A stretch of 64,000 nucleotides of DNA from a virus. The DNA lies in the IMG/VR virus record IMGVR_UViG_3300028840_006156; one strand, given 5' to 3'. Position 1 is the first letter of the stretch; the number at the start of each line of letters is the position of its first letter. Below the pieces are notes generated by a model. That model was not told the DNA's origin. It made no database searches and saw nothing but the letters and a program-made list of their open reading frames with translations. Position numbers and translations under genes: made by a program. Of the stretch, positions 1 through 52,686 are shown one piece after another.

Positions 1-701
1 ATGTCGTCGACCTCGACTTCACGCCCGAGTCCGTCGAGCCACGGGCCCTTGCTCTGCGGGCGCCACAGTCCCCGGCTCATGATGATCTGCGCATGGGCCT
101 GCTCGCAGCCGCTGCCGATCAGCGTCGCGTCTAGACCACGCACCGACTCGCATCCGGCCCAGGAGATGATCCCGGGTCCCGCGCCGAAGCTCGTGCCATG
201 TCGCTCGACGTAGCGCCAAGCCGCCTCGACGGCCGCCGAGTGCATGTGCTGCGCCTCCGCGCGGCGGACCACGTAGGTGTGGAGGCCCCGAGCTGCGCGC
301 GCGACCGCCTCGACGTCGAGGTCGCCGGACTGCTGCATCGCCTTGCGGTCCTCGAGCGTCCAGTCGAGTTGGACCTCGGTCACGCTCGCGGCCTTCGAGC
401 TGAGGTGATGCGGGAGCACGCCGATCACGTGCTTGCCGCGGACGTTGGCGGCGTTGTGTCCGTCGGCGAGTGCTTGCGCTTCGAGCACGTCTAGATCGCG
501 GGCGATCGTGCCGCCGCAGATCACATCGTAGACGTCACGGCGTAGGCTGATCTTGGCGGTCCGAGCATGGGCATGGGCGTGCTCGACCACGGGCGTCGAG
601 TCGTCGATGTAGCCCTCGCGGATCAGGTACTCGACGAGGGGAGCGTGGCGCGTGACGACGAGGTCGAAGCGCGCGGGGACGTAGGTGTTCTTGGTCTTCA
701 T
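1..701 (-). CDS. Csx16 (VVA1548-family)-like protein with a ~40 aa insertion and C-terminal extension; runs off the left edge
   Basis: Not in the ORF track (no stop in window). Manual translation from ATG 701: MKTKNTYVPARFDLVVTRHAPLVEYLIREGYIDDSTPVVEH...NVRGKHVIGVLPHHLSSKAASVTEVQLDW...LDVEAVARAARGLHTYVV, matching the Csx16 pattern (V)TRH...V-H...VIG-LP-HL. Confidence 0.75.
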   Translation of the reverse strand, partial: MKTKNTYVPARFDLVVTRHAPLVEYLIREGYIDDSTPVVEHAHAHARTAKISLRRDVYDVICGGTIARDLDVLEAQALADGHNAANVRGKHVIGVLPHHLSSKAASVTEVQLDWTLEDRKAMQQSGDLDVEAVARAARGLHTYVVRRAEAQHMHSAAVEAAWRYVERHGTSFGAGPGIISWAGCESVRGLDATLIGSGCEQAHAQIIMSRGLWRPQSKGPWLDGLGREVEVDD

Positions 702-817
702 TTTTTCGTGTTCTGGACGGCTCATCAGCGCCGGCATGTCCAAGCCGGCGGACGCCCGCAAGTGACAATGCCCTGGTCGCAGGACCATGTCTCCCAGACG
801 GGGGCGTTTCGCCGAGG

Positions 818-1051
818 TCAGCGGCGGTGCACAAGTTCGACCACGGGCCCGGGATCCCGGGCGAGCCTACGGCGCACGCGTCGACACTCACGGCGAAAAG
901 CCCTCTCGCTGCGGAGCAGCGCGAGCCGAGGAAATCGCGGGTGACCCATGGCCACCATGGTGCCAGACAGCGTGAGGCGGTAACCGCGGCGCCACAAACG
1001 GCGGCGGACGAAGTGAGCGACAGTTTTGACGCGAGTTGAGATGTTGTTCAT
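818..1051 (-). CDS. hypothetical Arg-rich protein (77 aa)
   Basis: ATG preceded by the same CCAGAACACGAA leader as the gene at 701. Confidence 0.5.
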   Translation of the reverse strand: MNNISTRVKTVAHFVRRRLWRRGYRLTLSGTMVAMGHPRFPRLALLRSERAFRRECRRVRRRLARDPGPVVELVHRR

Positions 1052-1146
1052 TGTTCGTGTTCTGGCCTGGTTGGTCAGGAGCGCAGGGCGGCCAGCTCCG
1101 CGCTCGGTTGTAGTGGTAGTTCAGCGGGGATCGATCCCCAGAAAGA

Positions 1147-1305
1147 TCAGGTCGTTGGGTACATCGACTCGGATCGGAGCCGATGGCGGACGTCTGCGAC
1201 CTCGTCGCTCGGAAACACGCGCACGGCCACTCCGTCGAGGGTCAGTCGCACGTGGTCACCGACGCGGCGCGCCCGTGCGATCGCGTCGTCGATCGACTCG
1301 CTCAC
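1147..1305 (-). CDS. hypothetical protein (52 aa, VSESIDDAIARARRVGDHVRLTLDG...)
   Basis: Manual translation; GTGA start/stop overlap with upstream ORF. Confidence 0.5.
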   Translation of the reverse strand: MSESIDDAIARARRVGDHVRLTLDGVAVRVFPSDEVADVRHRLRSESMYPTT

Positions 1306-1445
1306 AGCGGGCCCTCGCAGTCGTCCGCCCAGGGGCAGCGCTCAACCGCGACCGGCAGGATCATCGTGACGAAGACGCGCCACGACCAGGCCGCGGTCGC
1401 GATCAGGCCGGAGTCGACGAGGACGTGGGCGAGCCAGTCGATCAT
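1302..1445 (-). CDS. small hydrophobic protein (47 aa, MIDWLAHVLVDSGLIATAAWSW...)
   Basis: Manual translation; ATGA overlap with upstream ORF. Confidence 0.5.
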   Translation of the reverse strand: MIDWLAHVLVDSGLIATAAWSWRVFVTMILPVAVERCPWADDCEGPL

Positions 1446-1714
1446 CGCCGGTCCTCCCATCGAAAGGTCGCGTGCGAATGGTCGCCGCGGCCTTCGACGA
1501 TCTCGCCGGACATTGATGCTGATCCATGCAGCCCGAAGCCGCCGGGACCAGCAAGCAGAGGGTTCGGGTCAAACCCATCTCCGATGCACTCACGTCCCAG
1601 CCAATCCTCGTCCCAGCCAAGCGTCGATTTGAGCCGCATGTCCTCCAGCTCGCGGTCGAGTCGCCCTTGGGCGATGACCTCGATCAACAGTCGCCGATCA
1701 ATCTTCGTCGTCAT
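1442..1714 (-). CDS. hypothetical protein (MTTKIDRRLL...)
   Basis: First gene of a translationally coupled trio; phage-like codon use. Confidence 0.55.
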   Translation of the reverse strand: MTTKIDRRLLIEVIAQGRLDRELEDMRLKSTLGWDEDWLGRECIGDGFDPNPLLAGPGGFGLHGSASMSGEIVEGRGDHSHATFRWEDRR

Positions 1715-1746
1715 CGGTCCACCCAACCGCACCCCGCCGATCTTAT

Positions 1747-1762
1747 TTCGAGAAATCTCGAA
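1747..1762. promoter_or_regulatory. AT-rich palindrome, candidate operator
   Basis: TTCGAGA-AA-TCTCGAA perfect inverted repeat in the most AT-rich intergenic stretch. Confidence 0.45.
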
Positions 1763-1785
1763 AAAATCGCAACCAACCGTAATCG

Positions 1786-2235
1786 CTAGGCTTTTCGCCC
1801 TCGACGCATTGGATCCGGCCGGTTGAGCAGCGAAGCGCGAATCGCGGGGTCATCGCTCGAGAGTCCCTGCCGGAGCCGCTCGTAGGCCTTGGTGAACTCG
1901 CTGGCCACGCCGTAGGTCTGCCGCATCTGCTCGGCGACCTCGGCCTGCAGCGCCGCCTTTCCCGCGAGGAGCTGCTCGCGCGTGATCACCGGCTGGACCT
2001 CGGCGCGCTCCTCGACCTGGCCGTTGGCTTCGCCGATCTCCTCCACTCCGAGGTCCACGACGACGTGCCGGATCGTGTAGCCGCCCTCGGCCCACCCTTC
2101 GCCGTCCTCGCAGCCTCCATGGTGCCGGTGGCACTCGACGCAGACGGCGGCGTAGTCGTCCCACGGCGGCTCCCAGAGCACGAAGAGCTTCGTCTCGAAG
2201 CAGTGCTCGCAGAAGTAGTAGCCGACGCGCCTCAC
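1786..2235 (-). CDS. Cys/His-rich putative zinc-binding protein
   Basis: CEHC and CVECHRHH motifs; TAGCGT-N6-GTG upstream. Confidence 0.6.
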   Translation of the reverse strand: MRRVGYYFCEHCFETKLFVLWEPPWDDYAAVCVECHRHHGGCEDGEGWAEGGYTIRHVVVDLGVEEIGEANGQVEERAEVQPVITREQLLAGKAALQAEVAEQMRQTYGVASEFTKAYERLRQGLSSDDPAIRASLLNRPDPMRRGRKA

Positions 2236-2252
2236 GGATCGACGCTAGCACG

Positions 2253-3398
2253 CTACGGGGCCGGGTCGGTCGAGACCTGCACGACGTCTGCGCTCGTCAC
2301 GAGGTAGCTCGACGCGGAGGGCACGACGTCGCCGGCCGGCACGACGATCGCACCCTGCGGCACCGAGAGCCCGTCGATGTCCTGCCAGGCTCCGGTGATC
2401 TGGGCGAGGTAGAGCGTGGCGCCGACCTCGACCTCGCCGGTGATCCCAGCCGTCGGGTCGCCGATCACAGCGACCGCGGTCGACCGCGCCTGCTCGAGCA
2501 CGGTGGCCTCGTCGAAGTCCGGGTCGACCACGAGGTTGTAGGCCTCGATGAAGACCGTCTGCGGGTTGAGGGCTTCGACGATCACGGGGATCCCGGCGCA
2601 CCTGTACTCGCGGAGTACCTTTCGCACCTTGTTCGCGAGCGAGCTGTTCGTCGTGCCACCTCCCCCGAGGACCCGGACCCGGACCCGGCCGGTCTGCGCG
2701 TCGCCGTCGAGGAGCTCCTCGGCCTGGGCGGAGATGATCCCGGGCACAGCGGCGGCCGCCGCCTCGATCGCTCCGAGGGTCCCGCGTCGAGCTCGCTGGT
2801 ACGCGGTCTCGAGCTGCGCCTGGTAGTCCTCGGGCGACTGCTCGACGAGACCACCGCTTGCGGGCTCGTTGTTGTTGACCGCCAACGTCGTGTCTGGGAC
2901 CTGCCCGAGGATCGTCGAGATCGTCAACGCCGGGACGTTGCCGCCCGGACCAGCGGTCGTGGCGATCGCGTCCACGGTGTCGCCCGTCACGCCGAAGCCC
3001 AGCGGCAAGTCGACGGCGGTCTCGAAGGTCACGCCGCCGTTGGTCGAGACGAGGGTCCCCGCCGCGATCACGATCGACGATCCGCCCGGATCGCGCTTGA
3101 AAGTCAGCGGGACGATCGACGAGGTGGCTCCCTGTCGGATCTCGCCGCCGAGTTCGCTGGCGCCGTAGCGCTCGAGGGCCTCGATGCTGACCGACAGCGC
3201 CGTGCGCAGCCGGGTCTCGTTCAGCTCCCGCTGGGCATAGGTCGACGCTCGCTCGGACATCGCACCGACGGCCGCGAAGGCGATGTTCACCTGGCTACCA
3301 GGCGTCTCCATGATCTCGCGGGTCAGGCGAGTAGGCCGCGCGAGCCCCTCGCGTTTGGCGGCCTGGATGTAGTCCTCGGCGGTGGGCAGCGTGGCCAC
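2253..3398 (-). CDS. baseplate J-like wedge protein
   Basis: 381 aa; IAAGTLV...FET, AIATTAGPGGNV, GG..EQS.EDY, AAAAVPGI pattern; TACCCT-N6-GTG upstream. Confidence 0.9.
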   Translation of the reverse strand: MATLPTAEDYIQAAKREGLARPTRLTREIMETPGSQVNIAFAAVGAMSERASTYAQRELNETRLRTALSVSIEALERYGASELGGEIRQGATSSIVPLTFKRDPGGSSIVIAAGTLVSTNGGVTFETAVDLPLGFGVTGDTVDAIATTAGPGGNVPALTISTILGQVPDTTLAVNNNEPASGGLVEQSPEDYQAQLETAYQRARRGTLGAIEAAAAAVPGIISAQAEELLDGDAQTGRVRVRVLGGGGTTNSSLANKVRKVLREYRCAGIPVIVEALNPQTVFIEAYNLVVDPDFDEATVLEQARSTAVAVIGDPTAGITGEVEVGATLYLAQITGAWQDIDGLSVPQGAIVVPAGDVVPSASSYLVTSADVVQVSTDPAP

Positions 3399-3410
3399 GC
3401 GCCGAGGGTA

Positions 3411-3689
3411 TCACCGGAGCCTTGCGAGCCTTCGCTCGATCCGTTTGGCTGCGCGCGAGTGGTTGCGCGCGAGCGCGTAGTGGCCGTCGCTCGTGCACCT
3501 GACCCACTGAGCGCGCGCGGCACCCAGGCCAGCTTCCAGCGCTGCGATCTCCGCATGGTCTCCGCGCTTGAGCGCCCTCGCTCGACGGTACGCCCGAAGC
3601 CTCCGCCTGACCGCCAGACGCTTGTCGGGGTCGAGCACCGCGTCGGCGACCAGCGCAGCGGCGACCGAGCCGAGGACGAGCGCGATCAT
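3411..3689 (-). CDS. hypothetical protein with hydrophobic N-terminus
   Basis: ATGA-coupled to 3686-3802. Confidence 0.55.
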   Translation of the reverse strand: MIALVLGSVAAALVADAVLDPDKRLAVRRRLRAYRRARALKRGDHAEIAALEAGLGAARAQWVRCTSDGHYALARNHSRAAKRIERRLARLR

Positions 3690-3802
3690 GAGCCGAGAGC
3701 GTCCATGTACTCGCGCACCAGACCATCGATTCGACCCGCGCGATCGAGGTGCGGTCCTCGGCGAAGCTCGCGGCCGTTGAACTCGATCATGATGCGGATC
3801 AT
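3686..3802 (-). CDS. hypothetical protein (38 aa, MIRIMIEFNGRELRRG...)
   Basis: Manual translation; starts 7 nt after a GGGAAG-N17-GGTAG motif. Confidence 0.55.
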   Translation of the reverse strand: MIRIMIEFNGRELRRGPHLDRAGRIDGLVREYMDALGS

Positions 3803-3809
3803 GCCCGGT

Positions 3810-3837
3810 CTACCGCGAGCCCCACCGATCGCTTCCC
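3810..3837 (-). promoter_or_regulatory. GGGAAG-N17-GGTAG promoter motif
   Basis: 7 nt before ATG 3802. Confidence 0.8.
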
Positions 3838-3839
3838 GC

Positions 3840-4730
3840 TCACCGCGCCGGCAGGTCGAAGAGGAACGTTTGCAGACCCTCGGTCCGCGGCTGCACGCTG
3901 ATCACGAACCGGACCACGCCGCCGCCATTGGCCTCGACCTCGACGCGGGCTTCGACGGCCGCCTCGCGTACGTCGGGCTCGAACTGGATCTGCTCGCGCA
4001 CGCGCACGGCGATCTGCTGGACGTCGTATGGCCGCGCGACGCGCTTGGCGAAGCTGGTCAGGCCGTAGTTGGGTAGGTGCGAGAAGGCCCCGACCTCGGT
4101 CTGGATCCGCTGGAGGATTCGCGTCTTCAGTGACTCGGCGTTGTCCGCGAGGACGAGCTCGCCGGCCTCGTCGTAGCGCCAGATCCGCTCTCGCGCGACG
4201 GGCAGACCGGTGACCGGGTCGATCTCGAAGAAGGGGTTCGACCAGTCGCCGTAGGTGTCGACGGCCGCGATCCCGGTCCGGTTGCGCAGCGGACGGTCGC
4301 GCGCGGTCACGATGAAGATCGTCTGGCCGCCGAACTTCTGGCAGTTCGCGCCGAGGATCGGTCCGACGAGCTGGACCGCGTACTCGATCCCGGGCTCGAG
4401 GGTCGGCGCCGTCCAGACATGTAGCTGCGTAGGATCGTCCTCGTCTTGGAGGATGTCGTTGATCACCACGCCGCGGGTGGGCCTGCGCTTGCCGGGCTCG
4501 ACGTAGATCCCACCGTCGAGGGTAGGCACCGCTGGATCGATCGGGTCGACGCGCCAGTTCAGCGCGTTGCGGCTGTCGCGGTAGCCGATCGGGTCGCGCC
4601 ACTTCGGCGGGTCGGTGAAGAAGACCGTGATCTTGTTCTCTCCGACGCACAGGGCCGTGATGATCGAGAGCAGGCCCGGTCCGCCCCAGGGCGCGACGGT
4701 GCCGAAGGGCAGGATCCCGAAGCCGCTCAC
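3840..4730 (-). CDS. baseplate wedge gp25/gpW-like protein with N-terminal beta-rich (Ig-like) domain
   Basis: C-terminal ILQRIQTEVG.F..LPNYG...QIQFEPDVREA matches gp25/W family; adjacent to J. Confidence 0.75.
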   Translation of the reverse strand: MSGFGILPFGTVAPWGGPGLLSIITALCVGENKITVFFTDPPKWRDPIGYRDSRNALNWRVDPIDPAVPTLDGGIYVEPGKRRPTRGVVINDILQDEDDPTQLHVWTAPTLEPGIEYAVQLVGPILGANCQKFGGQTIFIVTARDRPLRNRTGIAAVDTYGDWSNPFFEIDPVTGLPVARERIWRYDEAGELVLADNAESLKTRILQRIQTEVGAFSHLPNYGLTSFAKRVARPYDVQQIAVRVREQIQFEPDVREAAVEARVEVEANGGGVVRFVISVQPRTEGLQTFLFDLPAR

Positions 4731-4748
4731 GCGTCGAGGGTACTACGC

Positions 4749-4775
4749 GGGAAGCGATCGGGTGGCGGTGGGTAC
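4749..4775 (+). promoter_or_regulatory. GGGAAG-N16-GGTAC promoter motif
   Basis: 8 nt before ATG 4784; back-to-back with TACCCT of gene 4730. Confidence 0.75.
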
Positions 4776-4783
4776 TTGTGGCG

Positions 4784-5203
4784 ATGAGTGAAGATCTCAG
4801 CGACAGGCTCCGCGCCGAGGTCGAGCGGCTCACCGCGGAGGCCGCCCGCCTACGGGAGCGGGTCGCCGAACTCGGGCGCATGCTGTGCATCAATGCGGCC
4901 GAGGATGCGCCCGCCGCGGAGCGCTCTTGTGCATTCATCGCTCGAGCGCGAGAGTTGGTCTGCTTGGAGTTGATCGGGCGACGCCCGTGTGTGCGGTGCG
5001 AGGAGATGTGTGACAGTCAAATGGAGCACATCGAGAGCAACGACTACAGGCCCTGGCCCATGTGCGCAGGCTGTGCTGAAGAGGTCGAAGGGTGGAACGA
5101 CGGCACCCCTACAGGGGCCAAGCCCGCGGAGCATCACGCTGACTGCACGCCCACGTCTCACTGCGGCGGCGAGGGCTGCCCTGGGAAGGCGTCTGACTGG
5201 TGA
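4784..5203 (+). CDS. coiled-coil plus Cys-rich hypothetical protein
   Basis: CVRC, CAGC and HHxxC motifs. Confidence 0.6.
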   Translation: MSEDLSDRLRAEVERLTAEAARLRERVAELGRMLCINAAEDAPAAERSCAFIARARELVCLELIGRRPCVRCEEMCDSQMEHIESNDYRPWPMCAGCAEEVEGWNDGTPTGAKPAEHHADCTPTSHCGGEGCPGKASDW

Positions 5204-5538
5204 TCGCGTCCAAGCTGATCCGGCTCGCCAAGACGAGGGTTCGCCGAGGCCTGACCATCGACTCACCGAGCTTCGTCAGCGAGTCCGCCCTCTATCTCGT
5301 GGGCGAGCCGGACGCCGTCGAGGGCCACGCTCGACTTCGCTCCGAGACCCGGTCCTATGCGGACGGCCTCCTGGTGGAGGTTGCCCAGGCCTTCGCCCTC
5401 CGGCGCGACCGAGCTCGACGAGAAGACGGCGAGGTCGAGTTGCGAGCGGCGTTGGTCGAGGCCAGGGCCGTGATCGACGCCTGGGTCGACGCGATCGATC
5501 ATCGGGCGGATCAGGGCACGCGGTCGACGAACTCGTAG
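5200..5538 (+). CDS. hypothetical protein
   Basis: GTGA overlap with upstream gene. Confidence 0.5.
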   Translation: MIASKLIRLAKTRVRRGLTIDSPSFVSESALYLVGEPDAVEGHARLRSETRSYADGLLVEVAQAFALRRDRARREDGEVELRAALVEARAVIDAWVDAIDHRADQGTRSTNS

Positions 5539-5939
5539 CTGAACCAGACGTGGGTCGCCGCGGTCGTGTTGTTGATCGCGATGACCTGCAGCCACGCCTC
5601 GAAGCCCTGCGGGAGGTCCTGGTCGATCGCCGCGAAACCGCCGGGCCAAGGGTTGCCGGCGTTGGCGACGCTGATCGCCTGCAGCCCGACGTACTCGAGC
5701 GCCGCCCCACCAAGCCCTGGTGCAGCGTAGACGAGCCGCGCGTCGAAGGTCAGGCCCGCGGTCATGTCGACCGGGTTCGAGCTCTCGGTGCCGCCGTCGT
5801 AGCCGATCCCGTACCACTGGACGAAACCCGTCGTCGGGCCCCGGATCGACTCGACGAGTCCGCCCGGAGCCGGACGGGTCTGCAGCGTCGACCACTCGGG
5901 GTCCGGGCCGTCGGCGATCAGGAAGCGGCGGTGCAGCAT
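5511..5939 (-). CDS. putative virion protein
   Basis: Beta-rich composition; TAGCCT-N6-ATG; baseplate context. Confidence 0.55.
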   Translation of the reverse strand: MLHRRFLIADGPDPEWSTLQTRPAPGGLVESIRGPTTGFVQWYGIGYDGGTESSNPVDMTAGLTFDARLVYAAPGLGGAALEYVGLQAISVANAGNPWPGGFAAIDQDLPQGFEAWLQVIAINNTTAATHVWFSYEFVDRVP

Positions 5940-5948
5940 GCCGCGAGG

Positions 5949-6494
5949 CTAGCACGCGCAGGCGCACGACCCGGCCGGGTGGGGGAGCAGGATCAGCGTG
6001 TAGCCGGCCTCGAGCACCGAGCACCCGGAGTTCGCCGCGGAAAAGGCCGGGGCGCCGCCGCAGACAGTTCCGAAGCCAGCGCCGCCCGGAGCGGTGCACA
6101 CGAAGCTGCTCGGCCCCAGCGAGACCGAGGCGAGCGACCACGGCCCAGCCACGACGGTCTTCGTCACGGTGCCGCCGTCGGTGAGCGTGAGCGCCCAGAA
6201 TCCGTAGCCGAGCCAGGTCGTGGTCGACTCGCCGGGCGGGACCGAGATCAGCACGACGCCCGTGGTCGCGCCGCCTGCAGGGCTCTGGTCGACATCGACC
6301 GCGAGCGAGTGCGCGACGATCGACGTGTTCGGGGATGCGTAGATCGACGCCGTCCCCGAGAAGCCCGTGAGCGAGAGCGGCCTTCCGGTGCGCGCGTCGA
6401 TCATCCGCAGCCGGACGTCGATCGAGTTGCCCCGCTGCGCTTGAAGCGTCAGCGGGACAGGACAGATCGTCTGCGCGATCGGGTCGAGGGCCAT
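5949..6494 (-). CDS. putative baseplate/fibre attachment protein (BppU-N-like) with Cys-rich tail
   Basis: QRGNSIDVRLRMIDARTGRPLSLTG pattern; TACCCT-N6-ATG. Confidence 0.55.
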   Translation of the reverse strand: MALDPIAQTICPVPLTLQAQRGNSIDVRLRMIDARTGRPLSLTGFSGTASIYASPNTSIVAHSLAVDVDQSPAGGATTGVVLISVPPGESTTTWLGYGFWALTLTDGGTVTKTVVAGPWSLASVSLGPSSFVCTAPGGAGFGTVCGGAPAFSAANSGCSVLEAGYTLILLPHPAGSCACAC

Positions 6495-9919: not shown

Positions 9920-10837
9920 CTACGGCGCCGGCTCGAAGTCGCCCGTCGCCGTGTGCTTCGAGCCCGGTCCCGCCGCGCCGCTGATCGCCGAGTAGACGTT
10001 CGTCGGCAACGGGGGCAGCGCCGGGTTGATCGCGCGAGCCACCGCGTCGATCCCGGCGTAGTTCGCCCAGAAGGTCGGGTCGATCGTGACGTTGCTCTGG
10101 TAGAGGTCGCGCGCGCGCACGAGCCCGTCCTCGAGCCCGACGTAGGGCGTCGCCGTCGGCGCCTGCGGACCCGGGGCGGTGTAGGGCGTCGGGGCGTAGG
10201 GCACCGCTGGCACGCCGGGGATCTCCTCGCCGCCGGGCGCAGCCTGTGACCCGATCGGCGAGCTCGCCGGCCCGACCCCGAGATGCGTCGTCCCGTCGAG
10301 ATGGATCGCCCCGGCCACCGCCTTGATATGCACGCCCGCGCCCGCCCACACGTTGACGTCCTGATCGTTGGTCTGGATCGCGAGCATGCGGCCGTTGACG
10401 AGGCGCGTGAAGTGCCAGGTGGACGCGGGGAACCGGTCGCCCTTGCGCTGAGCGTCGCCGGCCCCTGTCGAGACGCCGCCGACGCTCGAGGGCGTCGGGA
10501 AGTTCGCGTCGTTGAGCGCGCAGACGATCGTCCCCTGCTCGGGCTCGCCCTCGTCGAGCACGACCACGACCTGCTGACCCTCCTGGATCTGGAGGCCGTC
10601 GGGGCAGCGGCACACGATCCGGTCCTCGGCCTTGAGCGTGACCTCGACGAGGCACTCGCCCTGCTCCCAGCGCATCCACGCGGGCGTTCCCTCGGGCAGC
10701 GCGGTGAGTTGGTCCTCGTAGCCCACCGTGCCGATCGTCGTCTGGATCGGGATCCTCGGCGCGCTCACGCGGTTGGTGTTGGCGGGGTCACCGGAGATGA
10801 CCGGCGCGGGTCGGCGGAAGCTCGGGATCTGGACCAT
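9920..10837 (-). CDS. baseplate spike protein (gpV/gp5-like)
   Basis: OB-fold-like N-terminus (GQQVVVVLDEGEPEQGTIVCAL), beta-helix-like middle; TAGACT-N6-ATG. Confidence 0.75.
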   Translation of the reverse strand: MVQIPSFRRPAPVISGDPANTNRVSAPRIPIQTTIGTVGYEDQLTALPEGTPAWMRWEQGECLVEVTLKAEDRIVCRCPDGLQIQEGQQVVVVLDEGEPEQGTIVCALNDANFPTPSSVGGVSTGAGDAQRKGDRFPASTWHFTRLVNGRMLAIQTNDQDVNVWAGAGVHIKAVAGAIHLDGTTHLGVGPASSPIGSQAAPGGEEIPGVPAVPYAPTPYTAPGPQAPTATPYVGLEDGLVRARDLYQSNVTIDPTFWANYAGIDAVARAINPALPPLPTNVYSAISGAAGPGSKHTATGDFEPAP

Positions 10838-10850
10838 GGGTCGAGTCTAC

Positions 10851-10878
10851 GGGAAGCGAACAGCAGGCCGACGGGTAG
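10851..10878 (+). promoter_or_regulatory. GGGAAG-N17-GGTAG promoter motif
   Basis: 7 nt before ATG 10886. Confidence 0.8.
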
Positions 10879-10885
10879 ACCGAGC

Positions 10886-11443
10886 ATGGGCACCGAGTTC
10901 ATCATCGCGTCGAAGTCGAGCCGATCCTACGTCGACCTGCACAAGGGGCCGTGGGATTTCGTGGACTGGTCGCGGACCGGAGATGCGCTCCGGCTGGAGA
11001 TTGTTCGCGTGCTCGACGAATGGCTCACCTGGCCCCGGGTTGACTGTGAGGATGTTGCAGCACGAATCGTCGATGCAGTCGGTCAGCTGCCTTCAGACCG
11101 CGCGCTGGTCAGCGAGCACGCGGTCGAGTGGGAGGATGCCCGTATGCCGGACCCTGACCAGCGGGCGTATGAGGGTCTCCCGCCCGACCCCTATCGGTGC
11201 GTCGGGTCTCGATTTCGGGAAGCGCCCGCGGTGTCGGCGGGTAGTCCGGGCATGAAGATCCAAGTCACTCCGACCCATGACCAAGTCATCGCCGCGCTCG
11301 CCATTGTGTGGGGCTGTTCGCCCGAGGACATCACGAGCACCTCCGACGGCGTCTCGACGATCTACGAGATCAACACCGACGTGAAGGGCATCAACAAGGC
11401 CGAGCGCGCGATCGCCAAGCTGACGAAGGAGCAGGGCGAGTGA
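10886..11443 (+). CDS. hypothetical protein with an internal in-frame start at 11252
   Basis: Second promoter motif lies inside the ORF. Confidence 0.6.
   Translation: MGTEFIIASKSSRSYVDLHKGPWDFVDWSRTGDALRLEIVRVLDEWLTWPRVDCEDVAARIVDAVGQLPSDRALVSEHAVEWEDARMPDPDQRAYEGLPPDPYRCVGSRFREAPAVSAGSPGMKIQVTPTHDQVIAALAIVWGCSPEDITSTSDGVSTIYEINTDVKGINKAERAIAKLTKEQGE
11217..11244 (+). promoter_or_regulatory. intragenic GGGAAG-N17-GGTAG promoter motif
   Basis: 7 nt before in-frame ATG 11252 (MKIQVTP). Confidence 0.75.
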
Positions 11444-11745
11444 AACTCTACCCCGAGCTACTCCGCGCATGCGCGGCCTACCTCGCGCACGATCACGTCT
11501 ACGAGTGCACCACCGAGGACACGTTCAAGATGTTCGGAAAACTCGCTAGCCAACTCGACGTGTGGGGCGACGAGGGCGACGCGAGGGACCTAGTCACTGC
11601 GCACATTGACGCCATCCGTCGCTACGGCCGAGCGCGTCCCCACGGCGTCACCGCGAAGGGCGTCGAGGCGACCGCTCGCGCGATCCTGGACGCGACCCCG
11701 AGCATGCTCGCGTGGTGGTGCGAGAGGCTGGCGACCGATGGATGA
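11440..11745 (+). CDS. hypothetical protein
   Basis: GTGA overlap. Confidence 0.55.
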   Translation: MKLYPELLRACAAYLAHDHVYECTTEDTFKMFGKLASQLDVWGDEGDARDLVTAHIDAIRRYGRARPHGVTAKGVEATARAILDATPSMLAWWCERLATDG

Positions 11746-11953
11746 GGAGCGCGCTGGGTGGTACGCCGTCCTCGGGTGGGTCAACAAGTCCATCTTCGGT
11801 CCCGATGGCGGCGTCATGCTGACACCCCGGGGGAGCGGCGACGACGAGCAGGATTACGCGCGCGCTGCTGCCTGTCGGGCGTGGTCTGACCCGAAGTTCA
11901 TGGAGGGCACGGCGGGAGAGTTCGTGTTTGTCCACTGGGCCTACAACTGCTAG
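11738..11953 (+). CDS. hypothetical protein
   Basis: Overlaps upstream stop; MDEERAGWY. Confidence 0.5.
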   Translation: MDEERAGWYAVLGWVNKSIFGPDGGVMLTPRGSGDDEQDYARAAACRAWSDPKFMEGTAGEFVFVHWAYNC

Positions 11954-13833
11954 CTCGGCACGTCGATCCCGGTCCTCGTCTCGGTGACCTGGATCGACGC
12001 GCTGACGTCGAGGTAGTTGATCGCGTCGCCGGCGATCTGCCAGCCGCTGTTGATGTCCCACGCGAGGGTCAGCTTCTTCGTTCGAAACTCGCGCTGCAGG
12101 TACTCGGACCGCGACAGGGCGGCGTAGCGCAGCGCGTCCTCGACGGGCAGCCCGGCCTGGCGCGCTTGCTCGCTGCGCTGGAAGTCGGACCCCTCCGCGA
12201 GGATCAGCGCGGAGCTGACGATCCCCGTCGTCGGATCCTCGGCGGGAAGCTCGACGGCGATCGGGTCCTTCGGCCGCATGGCGAACACGTCGCCGACGAG
12301 ACCGGCTTCGAGGTTCTCGGGCAGCGCGGACAGGACCGGAGTGCGGATCTGGACCTCGAAGTCCCCGCGCGCGAGCTGCTCGTAGATCGACGCCGCCGCT
12401 CGAGTCAGGGCCGCGATGATCTCCTCGGGCGAGCCGCCGGCGACGCTGTCGAGGTTGAAGACCTTGATCTCGTCGCGGTCTCCATTCCCGGTCGGGGTCG
12501 GCCGGTTGTTCTTGCCGAGCGGCGGCCAGATCCCCGAGTAGCGCGTGCCGGTCGCGACGTCGAAGCCGTTTAGCTTGATCGTCGGAGTCGCGGTCCCCTT
12601 GAGGTTGCGGGCGAGGTTGAGCTCCTCGATATTGGCGCCGTAGACGAAGGTGCGCGTCGAGGTAGGCGGGGGCGTCGTGTCGCCGGCGGTCGTGCTCTCG
12701 CGGTAGTAGGTGCGCGGGTTGGTGATGACGAGCTCGCTCGCCACGAGTTGCTGTGCCGACTGCCGAGGAGTCCTGATCAGCGGGATGAAGCCGGCCGAGA
12801 TGACCAGGTCGGTGATGAAGTCCCAGTACGCGGTCTTCTGCCTGTTGCCCGGCGATCGCTTGCGGCCCTTCTTCGACACACCCCTCGAGTCCACCCATGC
12901 CTTCGGGCGGATCTCGTCGATCGTCGGGAGCGGGTCGATCCCGCCGTCGACGTTGCGGACCTCGTTGACGACGGAGATCCCACGGAAGCCCGGAAGGCCG
13001 AAGCGACGAGTGCGAGGCTTCAGCGTCGATCCTTGCGTCTTGAGCACGCGCGCGTCCTCACGCAGATATGCCGCCTGCGCTCGGGCGGCTGCGGCGGCTG
13101 CGTCGTCCCCCGATGCAGCGGCATCAGCAGCGACCGCGTCCTGGGCCCTGGCGTCCTTCAGGAGCCGCCTTCGGTCTCGGCCAAGCGCGCGCTTGCTCTC
13201 CTCCTCGAAACGAGCGTCAAGCGTCTCCGTGGCCGCGAGTGCGTCGCCGGTGAGCAGCAGCTGGATCGCCTCGTCGAGCCGCAAGAAGCCCGGCAGGTCC
13301 TCGAGCTGGTTGGGCGGGATCTCGGCGTCGAGTAGCTCGCCGGTCAGGTCGCGCGCGTCGAACATGACCTCCTGCGACGTGTCGTTGATCGTGATCGAGT
13401 GCTTGTCGACGAAGCCGCGGAACAGCTCCGTCGGCCCATGCTGGTTGACGTCAGGGAGGAGCAGGCCGTCAGCGCCGGGCACCTGTCCGGCTGCCCACTC
13501 CTCGGGCGTGTAGACGCCGCCGAAGACCTGCACCGCGATCGCCCTGATCAGTCGCGGGTCGAAGGGCAACTCCGCGAGTTGGAACGTCATCTTGGCCGTG
13601 TCCGCTTTGCGGTAGTTGTTCAGCTCGACCGTGCACTGCGTCGGCACAAGGTCGCGGCCGATCAGGACGAACTGCGCGGCCTGCTCGAGGATGTCGTCGT
13701 TGGTTCCTGACCCGAAGGACTCCGCGCCCGAGTTGGGGTTGGGCGCGGACGGCTGAGGGGGCGTGAACGCGTCGACGTTGTTCTCGAAGCGGATCTTGAG
13801 TCGGACCTTGCAGCCTACGTAGTACTCGGTCAC
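11950..13833 (-). CDS. baseplate hub protein (gpD/Mu gp44-like) with coiled-coil insertion
   Basis: VELNNYRKADTA.MT, FRGFVDKHSI, FDARDLTG.LLD pattern; position between LysM and spike genes. Confidence 0.75.
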   Translation of the reverse strand: MTEYYVGCKVRLKIRFENNVDAFTPPQPSAPNPNSGAESFGSGTNDDILEQAAQFVLIGRDLVPTQCTVELNNYRKADTAKMTFQLAELPFDPRLIRAIAVQVFGGVYTPEEWAAGQVPGADGLLLPDVNQHGPTELFRGFVDKHSITINDTSQEVMFDARDLTGELLDAEIPPNQLEDLPGFLRLDEAIQLLLTGDALAATETLDARFEEESKRALGRDRRRLLKDARAQDAVAADAAASGDDAAAAAARAQAAYLREDARVLKTQGSTLKPRTRRFGLPGFRGISVVNEVRNVDGGIDPLPTIDEIRPKAWVDSRGVSKKGRKRSPGNRQKTAYWDFITDLVISAGFIPLIRTPRQSAQQLVASELVITNPRTYYRESTTAGDTTPPPTSTRTFVYGANIEELNLARNLKGTATPTIKLNGFDVATGTRYSGIWPPLGKNNRPTPTGNGDRDEIKVFNLDSVAGGSPEEIIAALTRAAASIYEQLARGDFEVQIRTPVLSALPENLEAGLVGDVFAMRPKDPIAVELPAEDPTTGIVSSALILAEGSDFQRSEQARQAGLPVEDALRYAALSRSEYLQREFRTKKLTLAWDINSGWQIAGDAINYLDVSASIQVTETRTGIDVPS

Positions 13834-17319: not shown

Positions 17320-19556
17320 GTCCCCTGCTCGATCGCGCCGTAGGCCTGGACGCGCCGGTCCGCGAGGCCGGCCGTCTTCTTGATGAACGCCGCGAACAGC
17401 CGGTCGGGGTCGGGGTCCGTCGTGTTGATCACGACCTCGACCTTGCCGATCTTCGTCCCGCCTGGAGCCCGCTTGTCCTTGTCCTTGTCCTTGCCCGCGA
17501 GCATGTCGGACAACGACTGCTGGAGGTCCTTCGCCTTCTTCTGGGCGGCAGCAAACTGCATCGGGGTGAGTTGCGCATCTCGCACTGCGTCAGCTGCCTT
17601 GTGGAACCTGTCCGCGGTCTTGAGGTTCGCGCTTGCTGCGCCGTAGGCCGAGTCGCGGATCCCGTCGATCGATGCGATCGCTCCGTCGAGTCCGTCGCCG
17701 ACCTTGGGGATCTTCGACATGACTCGAAGGCCGTCGCCGATCAGCTGGAGTAGCGCCGAGAAGGCGAGCCGGAACGCTCCGAAGGCCTCGATCCCGTAGG
17801 CCACGATGTCGATCATCCCGCCGAGGACCATCGACGCGAAGTCGACTGCGCCGGTGAGCATGTCGAGGCCGCTGACCATCACCGTCGCCGCGTCGGTGCC
17901 CCCGAACATGGCGACACCGACCAGGCGCAGTCGCTCGTAGAACGTGTAGAGCGACGTGATCAGCGGGAGCAGCGAGATCTTGCCCGACTCAATCGCACCG
18001 ACGAGCGACGCCTTGATCTCGTCCCACGATGTGGCGACGTAGGCCGCGAGGCCGCCGACGACCACGGCGACGCCGGAGAACGCGAGCGCGAGTCCGCCAG
18101 CGGCGACGCCGACGCCAGCGATCAGGGGGGCGAGCGTGGCGAACTTGAGGATCGTCTTGTCCATCCCTCGGAACAGCCGCAGGCCGCCCTTCCCCCCGCC
18201 GATCTTTCCGGTGATCCGTGACAGGCCTCGGCCGAGCATCCCGAGCCCGCCGCCGCCCTTCCGGCCACCCATGCCCCGACCGATCGCCATGTGTCGACGC
18301 CTGGCCATGGCGCCGAAGCCTTCACGTCCGCGCCTCATCCCTGCGCCGACGACCTGCGCAGCGGCCATGCCCTTGCCCGCGATGATCATGCCGTAGCCCG
18401 CGACGAGACGAGCGGTCGCCACGACGCTCGCTGCCTTGAGTGCAGCGCCCGCGAGCACGCCGGCCTCCTGGATCTTCGTCGCGATGTCGCGCCAGTGGGT
18501 GGCGACGTACCAGGCCCCGCGGTGTAGCCGGTCGAACAGCTTGTCGGCTGCCTTCGACAGCTGCTGACCCGCGAAGCTCGCGGCATTTTCCATCGTGTCC
18601 ATGCCGCCGCCGAAGGTGCTGATCCCGACCTTGCCGGTGGCACGGCTCATCGCGCGCTTGAGGCTGTCCATGAGCGGGGCAGCAAAGGCGCCGGCTAGCG
18701 TCATGCCCTCGGACTTCATCGTCGACGCGAGGCCACCGAAAGACTTGCCGAAGGCCGTTGCCGCCTCTTTCGAGACCCCATCGACCGCGACCTCGACGAT
18801 CTTGAGCGCCGTGTCGCCGCTTTGCTTCGCCAGCTTGTTGAACATCTGGGCGAAGTCAGCCTCGGTCTCCTTGCCGGTGACCTTCTTGAACGCTTCGCGG
18901 AGGTTGGGCTCGAGCTGCGAGAAAACAGCGACGTCAGCACCTGCGAGGCCACGTACGATCCGGCCGACGTCGGCGCCCATCTGCTTGTAGTCACCGCCGG
19001 TCGTGAACGCGAGCAGCGAGACCTTTTCCATCAGGTCGCGCTGGCGTTTCAGATCCTTGGTCACGCCGGTCACGCCGGGCGCCATCGCCGAGTAGGCCGT
19101 GGCGATGTCCTCGTAGGTTGCGGGCGACTTCTTGGCGATGTCGTAGAGCTCCGCCTGCATCCCCGCGGCGAGTTCGCTGGCCTTGGCGAACTCGGTCATC
19201 TGCCCGGTCATCACGGCCTGGGACTGACCGGCGACCCCGAACAGCTGGTACATCGTCGCCAGGCCGAGCCGGCCCTGCTCCATCTCGGAGTTGAAGCGGA
19301 CGCCCTCGCTAGCCGCCGCCGCGACGCCTCCGACGAGCGCACCGCCGGCCGCCATTGCGCCCATCCTCGCCCACTCGCGAGCAGTCTGGCCAAAGGTCCC
19401 CCGCACGCGCTCTCCCGCGGACACGAGCCGGCTCGACATCGACGCGTAGGACTTGCCGACGGTGTCCGCCGCGCGAGCCATGCCGATCGCCTCGCGCTGG
19501 AAGCTGCCCGCGGTCTTCAGGTTCGCGCGGACGTCGTAGGTGATCCCCTGCGGCAC
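17316..19556 (-). CDS. tail tape measure protein
   Basis: 746 aa Ala/Gly-rich helical protein; AKKSPATYEDIATAY TMP motif; follows chaperone genes. Confidence 0.9.
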   Translation of the reverse strand: MPQGITYDVRANLKTAGSFQREAIGMARAADTVGKSYASMSSRLVSAGERVRGTFGQTAREWARMGAMAAGGALVGGVAAAASEGVRFNSEMEQGRLGLATMYQLFGVAGQSQAVMTGQMTEFAKASELAAGMQAELYDIAKKSPATYEDIATAYSAMAPGVTGVTKDLKRQRDLMEKVSLLAFTTGGDYKQMGADVGRIVRGLAGADVAVFSQLEPNLREAFKKVTGKETEADFAQMFNKLAKQSGDTALKIVEVAVDGVSKEAATAFGKSFGGLASTMKSEGMTLAGAFAAPLMDSLKRAMSRATGKVGISTFGGGMDTMENAASFAGQQLSKAADKLFDRLHRGAWYVATHWRDIATKIQEAGVLAGAALKAASVVATARLVAGYGMIIAGKGMAAAQVVGAGMRRGREGFGAMARRRHMAIGRGMGGRKGGGGLGMLGRGLSRITGKIGGGKGGLRLFRGMDKTILKFATLAPLIAGVGVAAGGLALAFSGVAVVVGGLAAYVATSWDEIKASLVGAIESGKISLLPLITSLYTFYERLRLVGVAMFGGTDAATVMVSGLDMLTGAVDFASMVLGGMIDIVAYGIEAFGAFRLAFSALLQLIGDGLRVMSKIPKVGDGLDGAIASIDGIRDSAYGAASANLKTADRFHKAADAVRDAQLTPMQFAAAQKKAKDLQQSLSDMLAGKDKDKDKRAPGGTKIGKVEVVINTTDPDPDRLFAAFIKKTAGLADRRVQAYGAIEQGT

Positions 19557-51102: not shown

Positions 51103-51135
51103 GACGCACCCGCGCGGGTGCGCTACGATCGCGGC

Positions 51136-52686
51136 ATGTTCGCCCCGGCCAAGCGCAAGAAGGCAAAGCGCCGCCGACGGATCCCGGCGAAGGCGACGAG
51201 GCGCTGGCACGTCGAGTTGGAGGAGGCCCGGCGCGACCCGATCGTCTTCATCGAGTACGTGTTCGGGATCAAGCTCGATGACGTCCAGAAGTCCTGGGTC
51301 CGCTTCTGGATGCGCCACCGGAAGACGGTCCTGCACGGGTCGATCGGGCTGGGCAAGTCGCTGCTCATGCGCGGCATGGCGTTGTGGTTCATGGGCCGTG
51401 ATCCCGGCGTCCAGATCATCTGGCTGTCGGCGACGCAGCGCCAGCCGAAGAAGCACCTGAGCCTGATCGCCACCCTGATCGAGTCCGACGGCGCCCGGTC
51501 TCGACTTCATCACGTGTTCCCGCGGCTCAAGCCCGGCAACACCTGGCGGTCGACCGAGCTCACCGTGGCGCGCGAGGTCGACCCGCTCGAGGCCGACTAC
51601 ACGGTCTCGGTCTACGGCGCCTACTCGGACTCGCTGCTCGGCTCGCGCGCCACGATCCTGATCGTCGACGACCTGTGCAACTTCTCGAACACGCTCACCG
51701 AGGACGGCCGATCGAAGATGATCGAGTGGCTGGCGACGGTCCTCTCGCGCCTGACCACGCCCGACTACCGGATGATGGTGATCGGGAACTTCTGGCACAA
51801 GCAGGACGCGACGATGGACCTGCATCGCGCGAAGGGGTTCGAGTACATGAAGACCCCGGCGTTCGTCCGCGACGAGGCCGGCGAGATGATCCCGACGGCG
51901 CCGGCGGCCATGCCGGTCCCGACGATCATCGAGAAGATCAAGGAGCTCGGACCGCGCCGCGCGAAGCAGATGCTCGAGTGCGAGGCGGCGGACACGAACC
52001 TCGGCCGGTTCAAGGACATCTACTTCGCGCGCGCCCTCGAGCTTGGCCGCAGGCTGCCCTTCAGGCCCAAGCGCGAGTACGAGCCCTGCTTCACCGGGAT
52101 CGACCTCGGGTCGGGCAAGGCGCCCGGGTCGGACCGGACGGCGATGGTCACGGTCAAGCTCCGCGCCGACGGCAAGCGCCAGGTCGTCGACGTCCGGTCT
52201 GGGTGCTGGGGCAGCGACGAGATCAAGCGGAACCTCCGCGAGGTGAAGCGCCGCTACAACACGACGATCGCCGTCGAGAACAACGGGATCCAGAAGCTCG
52301 TGATCGACTTCTTGCGCGAGGCTACGGTGATCCCGCTCAAGGACCACAACACCAACGCGGTCAACAAGCGGGACATGGCCTACGGCGTCGAGGGCCTGGC
52401 CACTGAGATGTCCGAGGGCCTGTGGGTGTTCCCATGCGGCGACGCGGCCACCTTCGACCCTCGGTCCGGCATGACCGAAGACGAGGACAGCGAGCCCCAC
52501 GAGGAGCTACAGGCGATGATCGGCGAGGCGCTGACCTTCGACCCGACCAAGCCCCGCGAGCATACGGGCGACCGGCTCATGGCCTGGTGGATCTGCGTCA
52601 GCGTCATGTGGAAGTCGGCGCTGTTCGAGCTCGACGAGATGGAACTCGACCTCGACGCGCCGACCCACAACATCTTTGACCGCTAG
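51136..52686 (+). CDS. terL: terminase large subunit
   Basis: GSIGLGKS Walker A, ILIVDD Walker B, GIDLG...SDRTA and VENNG nuclease motifs. Confidence 0.92.
   Translation: MFAPAKRKKAKRRRRIPAKATRRWHVELEEARRDPIVFIEYVFGIKLDDVQKSWVRFWMRHRKTVLHGSIGLGKSLLMRGMALWFMGRDPGVQIIWLSATQRQPKKHLSLIATLIESDGARSRLHHVFPRLKPGNTWRSTELTVAREVDPLEADYTVSVYGAYSDSLLGSRATILIVDDLCNFSNTLTEDGRSKMIEWLATVLSRLTTPDYRMMVIGNFWHKQDATMDLHRAKGFEYMKTPAFVRDEAGEMIPTAPAAMPVPTIIEKIKELGPRRAKQMLECEAADTNLGRFKDIYFARALELGRRLPFRPKREYEPCFTGIDLGSGKAPGSDRTAMVTVKLRADGKRQVVDVRSGCWGSDEIKRNLREVKRRYNTTIAVENNGIQKLVIDFLREATVIPLKDHNTNAVNKRDMAYGVEGLATEMSEGLWVFPCGDAATFDPRSGMTEDEDSEPHEELQAMIGEALTFDPTKPREHTGDRLMAWWICVSVMWKSALFELDEMELDLDAPTHNIFDR

Follow-up and report, generated by a model that had tools for sequence, protein, structure and literature searches.

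The locus described here raises the question of what a phage does with a protein of the Csx16 family whose conserved core is interrupted by an insert, extended by a further domain and encoded just downstream of a predicted self-cleaving ribozyme. The gene lies on the minus strand at one end of a 64,000-nucleotide stretch of viral DNA (IMG/VR record IMGVR_UViG_3300028840_006156), which as a whole is called the window below. To our knowledge, few viral inhibitors of type III CRISPR systems are known, and AcrIII-1 is the one viral ring nuclease that has been examined in detail. A preliminary description of the window, made from the sequence letters, had noticed an open reading frame (ORF) running off the edge, with Csx16-like motifs split by an insert of about 40 amino acids and followed by an extra C-terminal domain, and had proposed an anti-CRISPR ring nuclease of unusual architecture. 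The sequence features that it listed were all recovered in the present analysis. With a probability of about 60%, the protein is a dimeric, metal-independent ring nuclease for cyclic tetra-adenylate (cA4), used by the phage as an anti-CRISPR against type III signalling.

Family membership and architecture of the protein

Profile matches place the protein in the Csx16 family; the conservation of its residues, its architecture and its phage setting were also established. Pfam family PF09652 (Cas_VVA1548, Csx16), against which the preliminary description had suggested a search, matched it in two stretches with 33.9 bits (E 3.7e-8), above Pfam's own gathering score of 25. A hidden Markov model (HMM) of our own, built from 23 single-domain viral Csx16 proteins, gave 87 bits (E 7e-27), with profile positions 4-37 falling on amino acids 12-45 and positions 34-95 on amino acids 82-148. 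Relatives that do not carry the insert cover PF09652 from end to end, as does P0012 over profile positions 2-90 of 91, and the JGI annotation of another insert-less relative, P0004, is the TIGR02620 family. A PHROGs search with the window's protein returned no match.

Conservation was read from an alignment of 23 homologues, the window's protein included (alignment A1). Its 17 invariant columns include T17-R18-H19, H41, R88, G94, L96-P97, S106, T108-E109, R119 and Y143. The VTRH motif is kept in all or nearly all of 40 homologues (39 viral ones from IMG/VR and one from a metagenome-assembled genome, MAG) and the other motifs in most of them, and the window's protein keeps every family-invariant polar residue of the Csx16 core. 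Core identity to the relatives that also bear the insert is 69-88% (78-88% for the larger second part). High identity in the core next to low identity in the insert and C-terminal domain fits a constrained active core. With 33.9 bits on PF09652, the clade is divergent from canonical Csx16.

The limits of the gene were established from several sources. From an ATG at position 701 the frame runs for 233 codons inside the window (701..3; MKTKN...) with no stop, and the list of ORFs gives an open minus-strand frame from 788 down to the window start. The last 28 nucleotides (nt) of the gene, stop codon included, lie beyond the edge. P0002, a stored gene product, has the same 233 residues followed by nine more and a stop, and a near-identical Logan metagenome contig (L001), which reaches 10 kb past the window start and so provides the extension that had been called for, completes the gene; the full protein is therefore 242 amino acids long. 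ATG 701 was taken as the start because homologue conservation in A1 begins at MK(T/F/I)xN and because the ribozyme occupies the upstream extension of the frame. In database gene calls (P0002, P0003, P0006 and P0028) the start is often placed too early, so that ribozyme or leader sequence is translated; in P0002 and P0003 the CUGAUGAG core (GCN-CUG-AUG-AGN), read as codons, gives the peptide A-L-M-S.

In A1 the insert comprises 44 amino acids (43-86) and sits exactly between invariant H41 and invariant R88. It is present in eight of the 23 aligned proteins, namely the window's protein and seven relatives, to which its identity is about 30%, versus about 80% for the core. The extra C-terminal domain (about 95 amino acids, 147-242) is common to 12 of the 23. 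Its identity to the domain of insert-bearing relatives is 15-43%, and it is 70% identical to that of P0004, a relative without the insert and with a less similar core (62-69%). The domain exists as two diverged versions, each of which is found both with and without the insert. Since combinations and identities are mismatched in this way, the parts have been reshuffled among phages while the core stayed strongly constrained.

The architecture is rare as well as unusual. A profile search with the C-terminal domain among 1.84 billion representatives retrieved 11 proteins only, nine of which carry the Csx16 core (five newly scanned with Pfam and four already in A1). P0026, a protein of 296 amino acids from a phage-like contig (L049, 8001-8891), has the domain, and Csx16 is found nowhere on its contig; the domain is therefore regarded as an autonomous module. 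A further match, P0027, is a call of 127 amino acids on a contig of 687 nt.

Other modifications were seen in viral Csx16 homologues. One (L038, 932-1273) has a repeat-like insert of about 20 amino acids after helix 1, another (L046, 2982-3506) a Cys-rich insert of about 40 amino acids before strand 2, and two on low-GC phage contigs (L039, 8126-8803, and L040, 5691-6368) an unrelated C-terminal extension of about 130 amino acids. Insertions and fusions thus seem to be accepted by the Csx16 core in more than one place.

Predicted fold and dimer

An AlphaFold2 (AF2) model of the protein, calculated with A1, had a mean predicted local distance difference test score (pLDDT) of 86, with about 97 over core and insert and 97-98 in the insert block. 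Searched as a whole with Foldseek against the PDB, the model gave nothing at E 0.001 or better. A Foldseek-independent structure search matched the core (residues 3..146) to AFV3-109, a DUF1874/Crn2 homologue (PDB 2j6c; Z 4.8, root-mean-square deviation (rmsd) 3.2, 81 residues), and to the cA4-bound Crn2 domain of Marinitoga Csx1-Crn2 (PDB 8y7g, 8y7g_B; Z 4.2, rmsd 3.1, 82 residues). The structural match named as a test in the preliminary description was thus positive but weak, and it stands at the same level and with the same partner family as published for genuine Csx16 (Z 4.8 against 2J6B; Hoikkala et al. 2025, PMC12409355). An Atlas search found a cluster of 227 amino acids, 100% PF09652, that matches the model at template modelling (TM) scores of 0.48-0.50. 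The insert resembles only generic pieces of three strands plus a helix in the Foldseek-independent search.

Prediction of a homodimer gave a score of 0.78, and the best of three controls scored 0.00. Of 30 proteins solved as one-chain pairs, 20 reach that mark, compared with one of 23 whose structures are single chains. The homodimer runs had at least 76% of their contacts in common, and partner pLDDT was at least 81. The predicted interface (residues 91, 95, 97-99, 105-107, 109 and 141-167) brings strand 141-148 together with its twin and includes the P97-H98-H99 helix, S106/E109 and the first helix of the C-terminal domain (150-167); the insert lies outside it. These models support a CARF-like, two-fold symmetric homodimer and suggest that the C-terminal domain may help to hold it together.

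In the model of the C-terminal domain, a long helix lies against an antiparallel sheet of five strands; the domain contains a conserved GPWLDGL motif, and when folded alone it had a pLDDT of 88.6. Foldseek searches with the domain alone gave nothing at E 0.1 or better in the PDB and BFVD. The best VIA-align match of the domain had Z 4.2 and Atlas matches had TM scores below 0.5, and no fold was assigned, which does not prove that the fold is novel. In a second VIA search, with the whole model, the matches were confined to helix-on-sheet folds like those of frataxin, XisI and cystatin, none above Z 4.0, and an Atlas feature search with the C-terminal domain gave no usable match.

The ribozyme, the upstream element and the phage setting

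Directly upstream of the gene lies a match to the type II hammerhead ribozyme (Rfam RF02276) over model positions 1-66 of 66 (42.2 bits; gathering score 37), the end of which is 11 nt away from ATG 701 (Table 1). It is the sole Rfam match at gathering score in the whole 64-kb window. All catalytic core bases are present (CUGAUGA, GAAA and the GUC cleavage triplet), together with three stems and a loop I-tail pseudoknot. Hammerheads also end 9 nt before the homologous gene in L003 (39.9 bits) and 11 nt before it in L004 (38.2 bits), with no second such match in the approximately 20 kb of each contig, and the one before the homologous gene of L051 scored 34.3 bits, just below the threshold. Comparison of upstream regions revealed GGCGAAAC...GUC...CUGAUGAG as a common feature of the leaders in the window, L003 and L004. 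In an alignment of the four ribozymes, 98.6% of cells were paired; double-sided changes occurred in two stem I pairs and one pseudoknot pair, and one-sided changes in no pair. Four sequences being few, these compensatory pairs add modest support to the Rfam scores.

Cleavage is predicted after GUC, so that the 3' product would begin at position 750 and leave a leader of 49 nt before the ATG. This predicted leader retains the stem I hairpin, the loop of which pairs with 715-718, 14-17 nt before the AUG. The loop I-tail pseudoknot is needed for fast cleavage by type II hammerheads (Perreault et al. 2011, PMC3088659). From the sequence features we infer that the ribozyme cleaves and has an effect on expression. 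The possibility that hammerheads precede phage Csx16 genes in general was considered and rejected: a scan for the CTGATGA and GAAAC motifs in the 150 nt upstream of 39 single-domain viral Csx16 loci from IMG/VR found no hammerhead core near the gene start (0 of 39). The hammerhead link is therefore specific to the fusion clade.

Farther upstream, the palindromic element GGGGATCGATCCCC...CCACTAC occurs in one copy in the window. The same element heads the cassette in L004 (9567-9652) and stands directly upstream of the Csx16-fusion gene in L002 (9914-10000) and L052 (1764-1858), in each case as one copy per locus and always at the head of the Csx16-fusion cassette. The leader that follows it (window 1052-1109) has a hairpin and no catalytic core, and the loop UGGCC can pair with GGCCA before the AUG. 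The element may be the cassette's own promoter or operator, followed by a leader resembling the 3' product of the ribozyme. Transcription start (in L002 and L052) and ribozyme cut (in the window) would then both yield a message beginning at the same type of hairpin-pseudoknot.

Between the element and the ribozyme lies a candidate, very Arg-rich ORF of 77 amino acids (818-1051); the leader motif before its ATG, CCAGAACACGAAcAAUG, also precedes the Csx16 gene. In its place, gene callers picked an ORF of 70 amino acids on the opposite strand, and the small ORFs at the corresponding position in related phages are unrelated in sequence. The phage's own promoter motif, GGGAAG-N16-17-GGTA, has 27 sites in the window versus 0.06 expected; none was found in 1-3800, and the Csx16 cassette therefore stands outside the phage promoter regulon. 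The gene is thus probably part of a self-contained unit that moves horizontally and is controlled by elements of its own.

Table 1. Coordinates of the Csx16-fusion gene, its parts, its upstream elements and other phage genes in the window
Feature	Position	Strand	Evidence or remarks
Csx16-fusion coding sequence	1..701	-	Translation, P0002, L001, conserved N-terminus
Csx16 core part 1 (amino acids 11-42)	576..671	-	Strand 1 (T17-R18-H19), helix 1, strand 2 ending in H41
44-amino-acid insert (43-86)	444..575	-	A1 alignment; predicted three strands and helix
Csx16 core part 2 (87-146)	264..443	-	R88, G94-x-L96-P97, HHL helix, S106-x-T108-E109, R119, Y143
C-terminal domain (about 147-242; last nine residues outside window)	1..263	-	Profile search, alignment, model
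Type II hammerhead ribozyme	712..814	-	Rfam RF02276, 42.2 bits; 40-nt insertion in stem III loop
Candidate 77-amino-acid Arg-rich ORF	818..1051	-	Stop abuts ribozyme; leader motif CCAGAACACGAAcAAUG; coding status uncertain
Promoter- or operator-like element	1110..1138	-	Palindrome GGGGATCGATCCCC, 12-13 nt, then CCACTAC
Baseplate J	2253-3398		
gp25-like wedge	3840-4730		Weak match
Large terminase	51118-52686		
Portal	53871-55925		

With a G+C content of 66-70%, the window represents a phage genome. Besides the virion genes of Table 1, it encodes a DnaB-type helicase, a superfamily 2 helicase and an exonuclease. The preliminary description had reported neither cas genes nor an array; in agreement with it, no cas gene was found among about 30 window ORFs scanned, and Tandem Repeats Finder (TRF) detected no CRISPR-like array in the window. 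ARAGORN found no tRNA there. Among the cultured phages of INPHARED there was no megablast match for window 1-6000, no tblastn match for the protein and no terminase match at E 1e-10. The phage was detected in one sediment and one seawater metagenome. BLASTP of the protein against all window ORFs revealed no common segment, and the idea of a tape-measure docking tag on the Csx16-fusion protein was rejected on this result.

In L001, a gene for 577 amino acids (10816-12549, outside the window) lies 27 nt downstream of the Csx16 gene and is followed by a ParB-methyltransferase fusion. A gene of about 575 amino acids is conserved in this downstream position in three phages (L001; L004, 10823-12538; L051, 1607-3352). 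It has no Pfam or PHROG family match; its neighbours in the Atlas are viral proteins close to families of receptor-binding and tail-fibre proteins. From the neighbours in L001, the Csx16 gene therefore lies between a baseplate gene and a probable tail-fibre gene.

A search of 5.8 billion proteins gave 24 matches. The contigs of the relatives (10 listed, of which the DNA of nine was read) are all phage-like, with no cas gene called near Csx16. They hold many small unannotated ORFs as well as genes for baseplate J, portal, RecT/YqaJ, RusA, DNA polymerase and methyltransferases. L003, which bears P0004, the closest insert-less relative, also has a gene of the Tad2-like anti-Thoeris sponge family (18995-19216), about 8 kb from Csx16. 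A pattern scan of IMG/VR identified 39 viral contigs with Csx16-like genes, most of whose products are single-domain proteins of 95-150 amino acids; phage-borne Csx16 is therefore not rare in metagenomes. A scan of 185,579 species genomes found one Csx16 locus, in a Patescibacteria MAG, and no prophage copy that would name the host.

Proposed function and comparison with known systems

Csx16 (PF09652/TIGR02620) is CRISPR-associated and has been shown experimentally to be a cA4-specific ring nuclease (Hoikkala et al. 2025, PMC12409355), in line with the degradation of cA4 mentioned in the preliminary description. Its conserved His, Arg and acidic residues have been judged compatible with catalysis (PMC8284326). 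In the mechanism proposed for the phage protein, T17, R18, H19, H41, R88, H98/H99, S106, T108, E109 and R119 would form a pocket for cA4 made by the host's type III Cas10, and the dimer would cut cA4 to linear products. Because the enzyme would cut cA4, cA4-dependent effectors would never be switched on, which is the same logic as that of the viral anti-CRISPR AcrIII-1. The long helix of the C-terminal domain would join the dimer interface, and the insert would stand in the loop bearing H41 and R88. Our guess is that the insert is a lid or specificity lobe and the C-terminal domain a dimer clamp, both of them fast-evolving accessory parts. The cassette, placed between the baseplate and probable tail-fibre genes, would have its own upstream element, small ORF and type II hammerhead, and ribozyme cleavage of the transcript, 49 nt ahead of the start codon, would give a separate message that starts with a hairpin-pseudoknot. 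From the evidence above we infer the dimer, the binding and cleavage of cA4 and the anti-CRISPR role.

A further proposal, which we consider rather unlikely, sees in these parts a mobile counter-defence cassette of high-GC phages, made up of the palindromic element, a variable small ORF, a type II hammerhead trimming the message to a constant 5' end formed by a hairpin-pseudoknot, and a Csx16 core with a lid-like insert and a dimer-clamping domain. These additions would give the enzyme a property that plain Csx16 lacks, such as a wider range of cyclic oligoadenylates (cOA), much faster turnover or direct binding to a type III effector.

Several points weigh against a phage cA4 ring nuclease. 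Biochemical activity is a prediction for all phage Csx16 proteins, this one included, and a type III system in the phage's host is presumed. The insert interrupts a loop with two invariant residues and could therefore alter catalysis or destroy it. A further point is the position of the gene among the tail genes, since late expression, if it occurs, would be atypical timing for an anti-CRISPR. Csx15 was once predicted, together with Csx16, to be a ring nuclease, but its main activity turned out to be cA4 binding, with very slow cleavage (PMC13148439); family likeness is thus no guarantee of fast turnover. The match to the Crn2/AcrIII-1 fold is weak (Z below 5) and, according to the tool's note, within the range of common arrangements, and a profile search of PDB sequences gave no solved Csx16 relative for comparison. 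Finally, an NCBIfam scan of the protein at E up to 10 returned no family; a split domain may sit below HMMER's filters.

The Csx15 precedent, a good cA4 binder and very slow enzyme (PMC13148439), also lends some weight to an unlikely explanation in which the protein would bind cOA as a sponge or sensor with little turnover, the insert and C-terminal domain serving sequestration or the relay of a signal to a phage process. The splitting of the conserved H41...R88 loop and the autonomy of the C-terminal domain, found without Csx16 in P0026, would agree with such a role. However, all family-invariant polar residues are kept in a strongly constrained core, sponging has been argued to be a poor answer to the large amounts of cOA made by type III systems, and Csx15 itself was not seen in phages (PMC13148439).

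It is quite unlikely that the protein is a ring nuclease or phosphodiesterase for another signal (cA3, cA6, or a cyclic oligonucleotide of the cyclic-oligonucleotide-based antiphage signalling system (CBASS) or another kind), with a specificity retuned by the insert and a target other than cA4-type type III CRISPR. In published assays a tenfold rise in protein did not extend the specificity of Csx16 beyond cA4 (PMC12409355), and the insert-less relatives have the same core motifs, although the related Csx20 also cuts cA3 at high concentration (PMC12409355) and the insert lies in a loop with two invariant residues of a clade that has diverged from canonical Csx16. A non-defence task for a recruited Csx16-like fold, for example in RNA end processing or in virion or tail assembly, would be suggested by the position within the tail module, by a C-terminal domain without known fold, and by a setting in which no cas genes were seen. 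We hold this to be unlikely, since the gene neighbourhoods in L002, L003 and L005 are quite different, so that the fusion gene does not depend on tail genes as neighbours, since the upstream element of the cassette does not belong to the phage's promoter set, and since the protein has no sequence in common with any other window ORF. A cA4 ring nuclease acting against type III signalling is thus the reading that we favour.

The clade is of value as a natural series of one core, which occurs either with or without the 44-amino-acid insert in its catalytic loop and with either version of the C-terminal domain, and which allows a clean test of the effect of these additions on a ring nuclease. In four phage contigs a type II hammerhead is strictly paired with this gene; few other bacterial or phage hammerheads can be assigned to one defined gene, and its role in expression is therefore directly testable.

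Compared with Csx16, the window's protein keeps the polar motifs, a core of about 95 residues with five strands and flanking helices, a predicted dimer and a weak likeness to DUF1874. Unlike CRISPR-associated Csx16, its gene is phage-encoded and does not lie beside cas10 or a type III locus, which assigns it to the phage branch of the family and sets it apart from the cellular members; it is preceded by a hammerhead ribozyme, and the core is split by a folded insert and fused to a domain near-exclusive to a small clade. AcrIII-1/Crn2 (DUF1874) is described as a viral ring nuclease anti-CRISPR by Athukoralage et al. (2020), as cited in PMC12409355. The likeness to it consists in a small viral protein, the proposed destruction of cA4 against type III CRISPR and a weakly similar fold, whereas AcrIII-1 is single-domain and the window's protein is multi-part, with catalytic residues that cannot be equated from these data. 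PF09652 was the one family reported by a Pfam scan with a limit of E 10; the protein is not a DUF1874 member, and an AcrIII-1-like mode of action may nevertheless apply.

The demonstration that Csx16 is a cA4 ring nuclease dates from as late as 2025, and phage copies appear in the literature consulted only as a count, two of 28,114 phage genomes (PMC12409355). These two and the 39 IMG/VR contigs have the same core, motifs and phage setting without cas genes, but most of the proteins have neither this insert nor this C-terminal domain, and a few longer ones carry other extensions. For the ribozyme, the nearest parallel is that of the hammerheads flanking the anti-restriction gene ardA in a prophage region of Agrobacterium tumefaciens (Perreault et al. 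2011, PMC3088659). Those too are self-cleaving type II hammerheads with a loop I-tail pseudoknot, adjoining a phage counter-defence gene in a polycistronic transcript. In contrast to ardA, the window has a single ribozyme, located upstream only, with a 40-nt insertion in stem III, beside a gene of a ring-nuclease family. The viral ring nuclease as a kind and Csx16 in phages were thus already known, and what is new is the architecture of the protein and its tight link to the hammerhead and upstream element.

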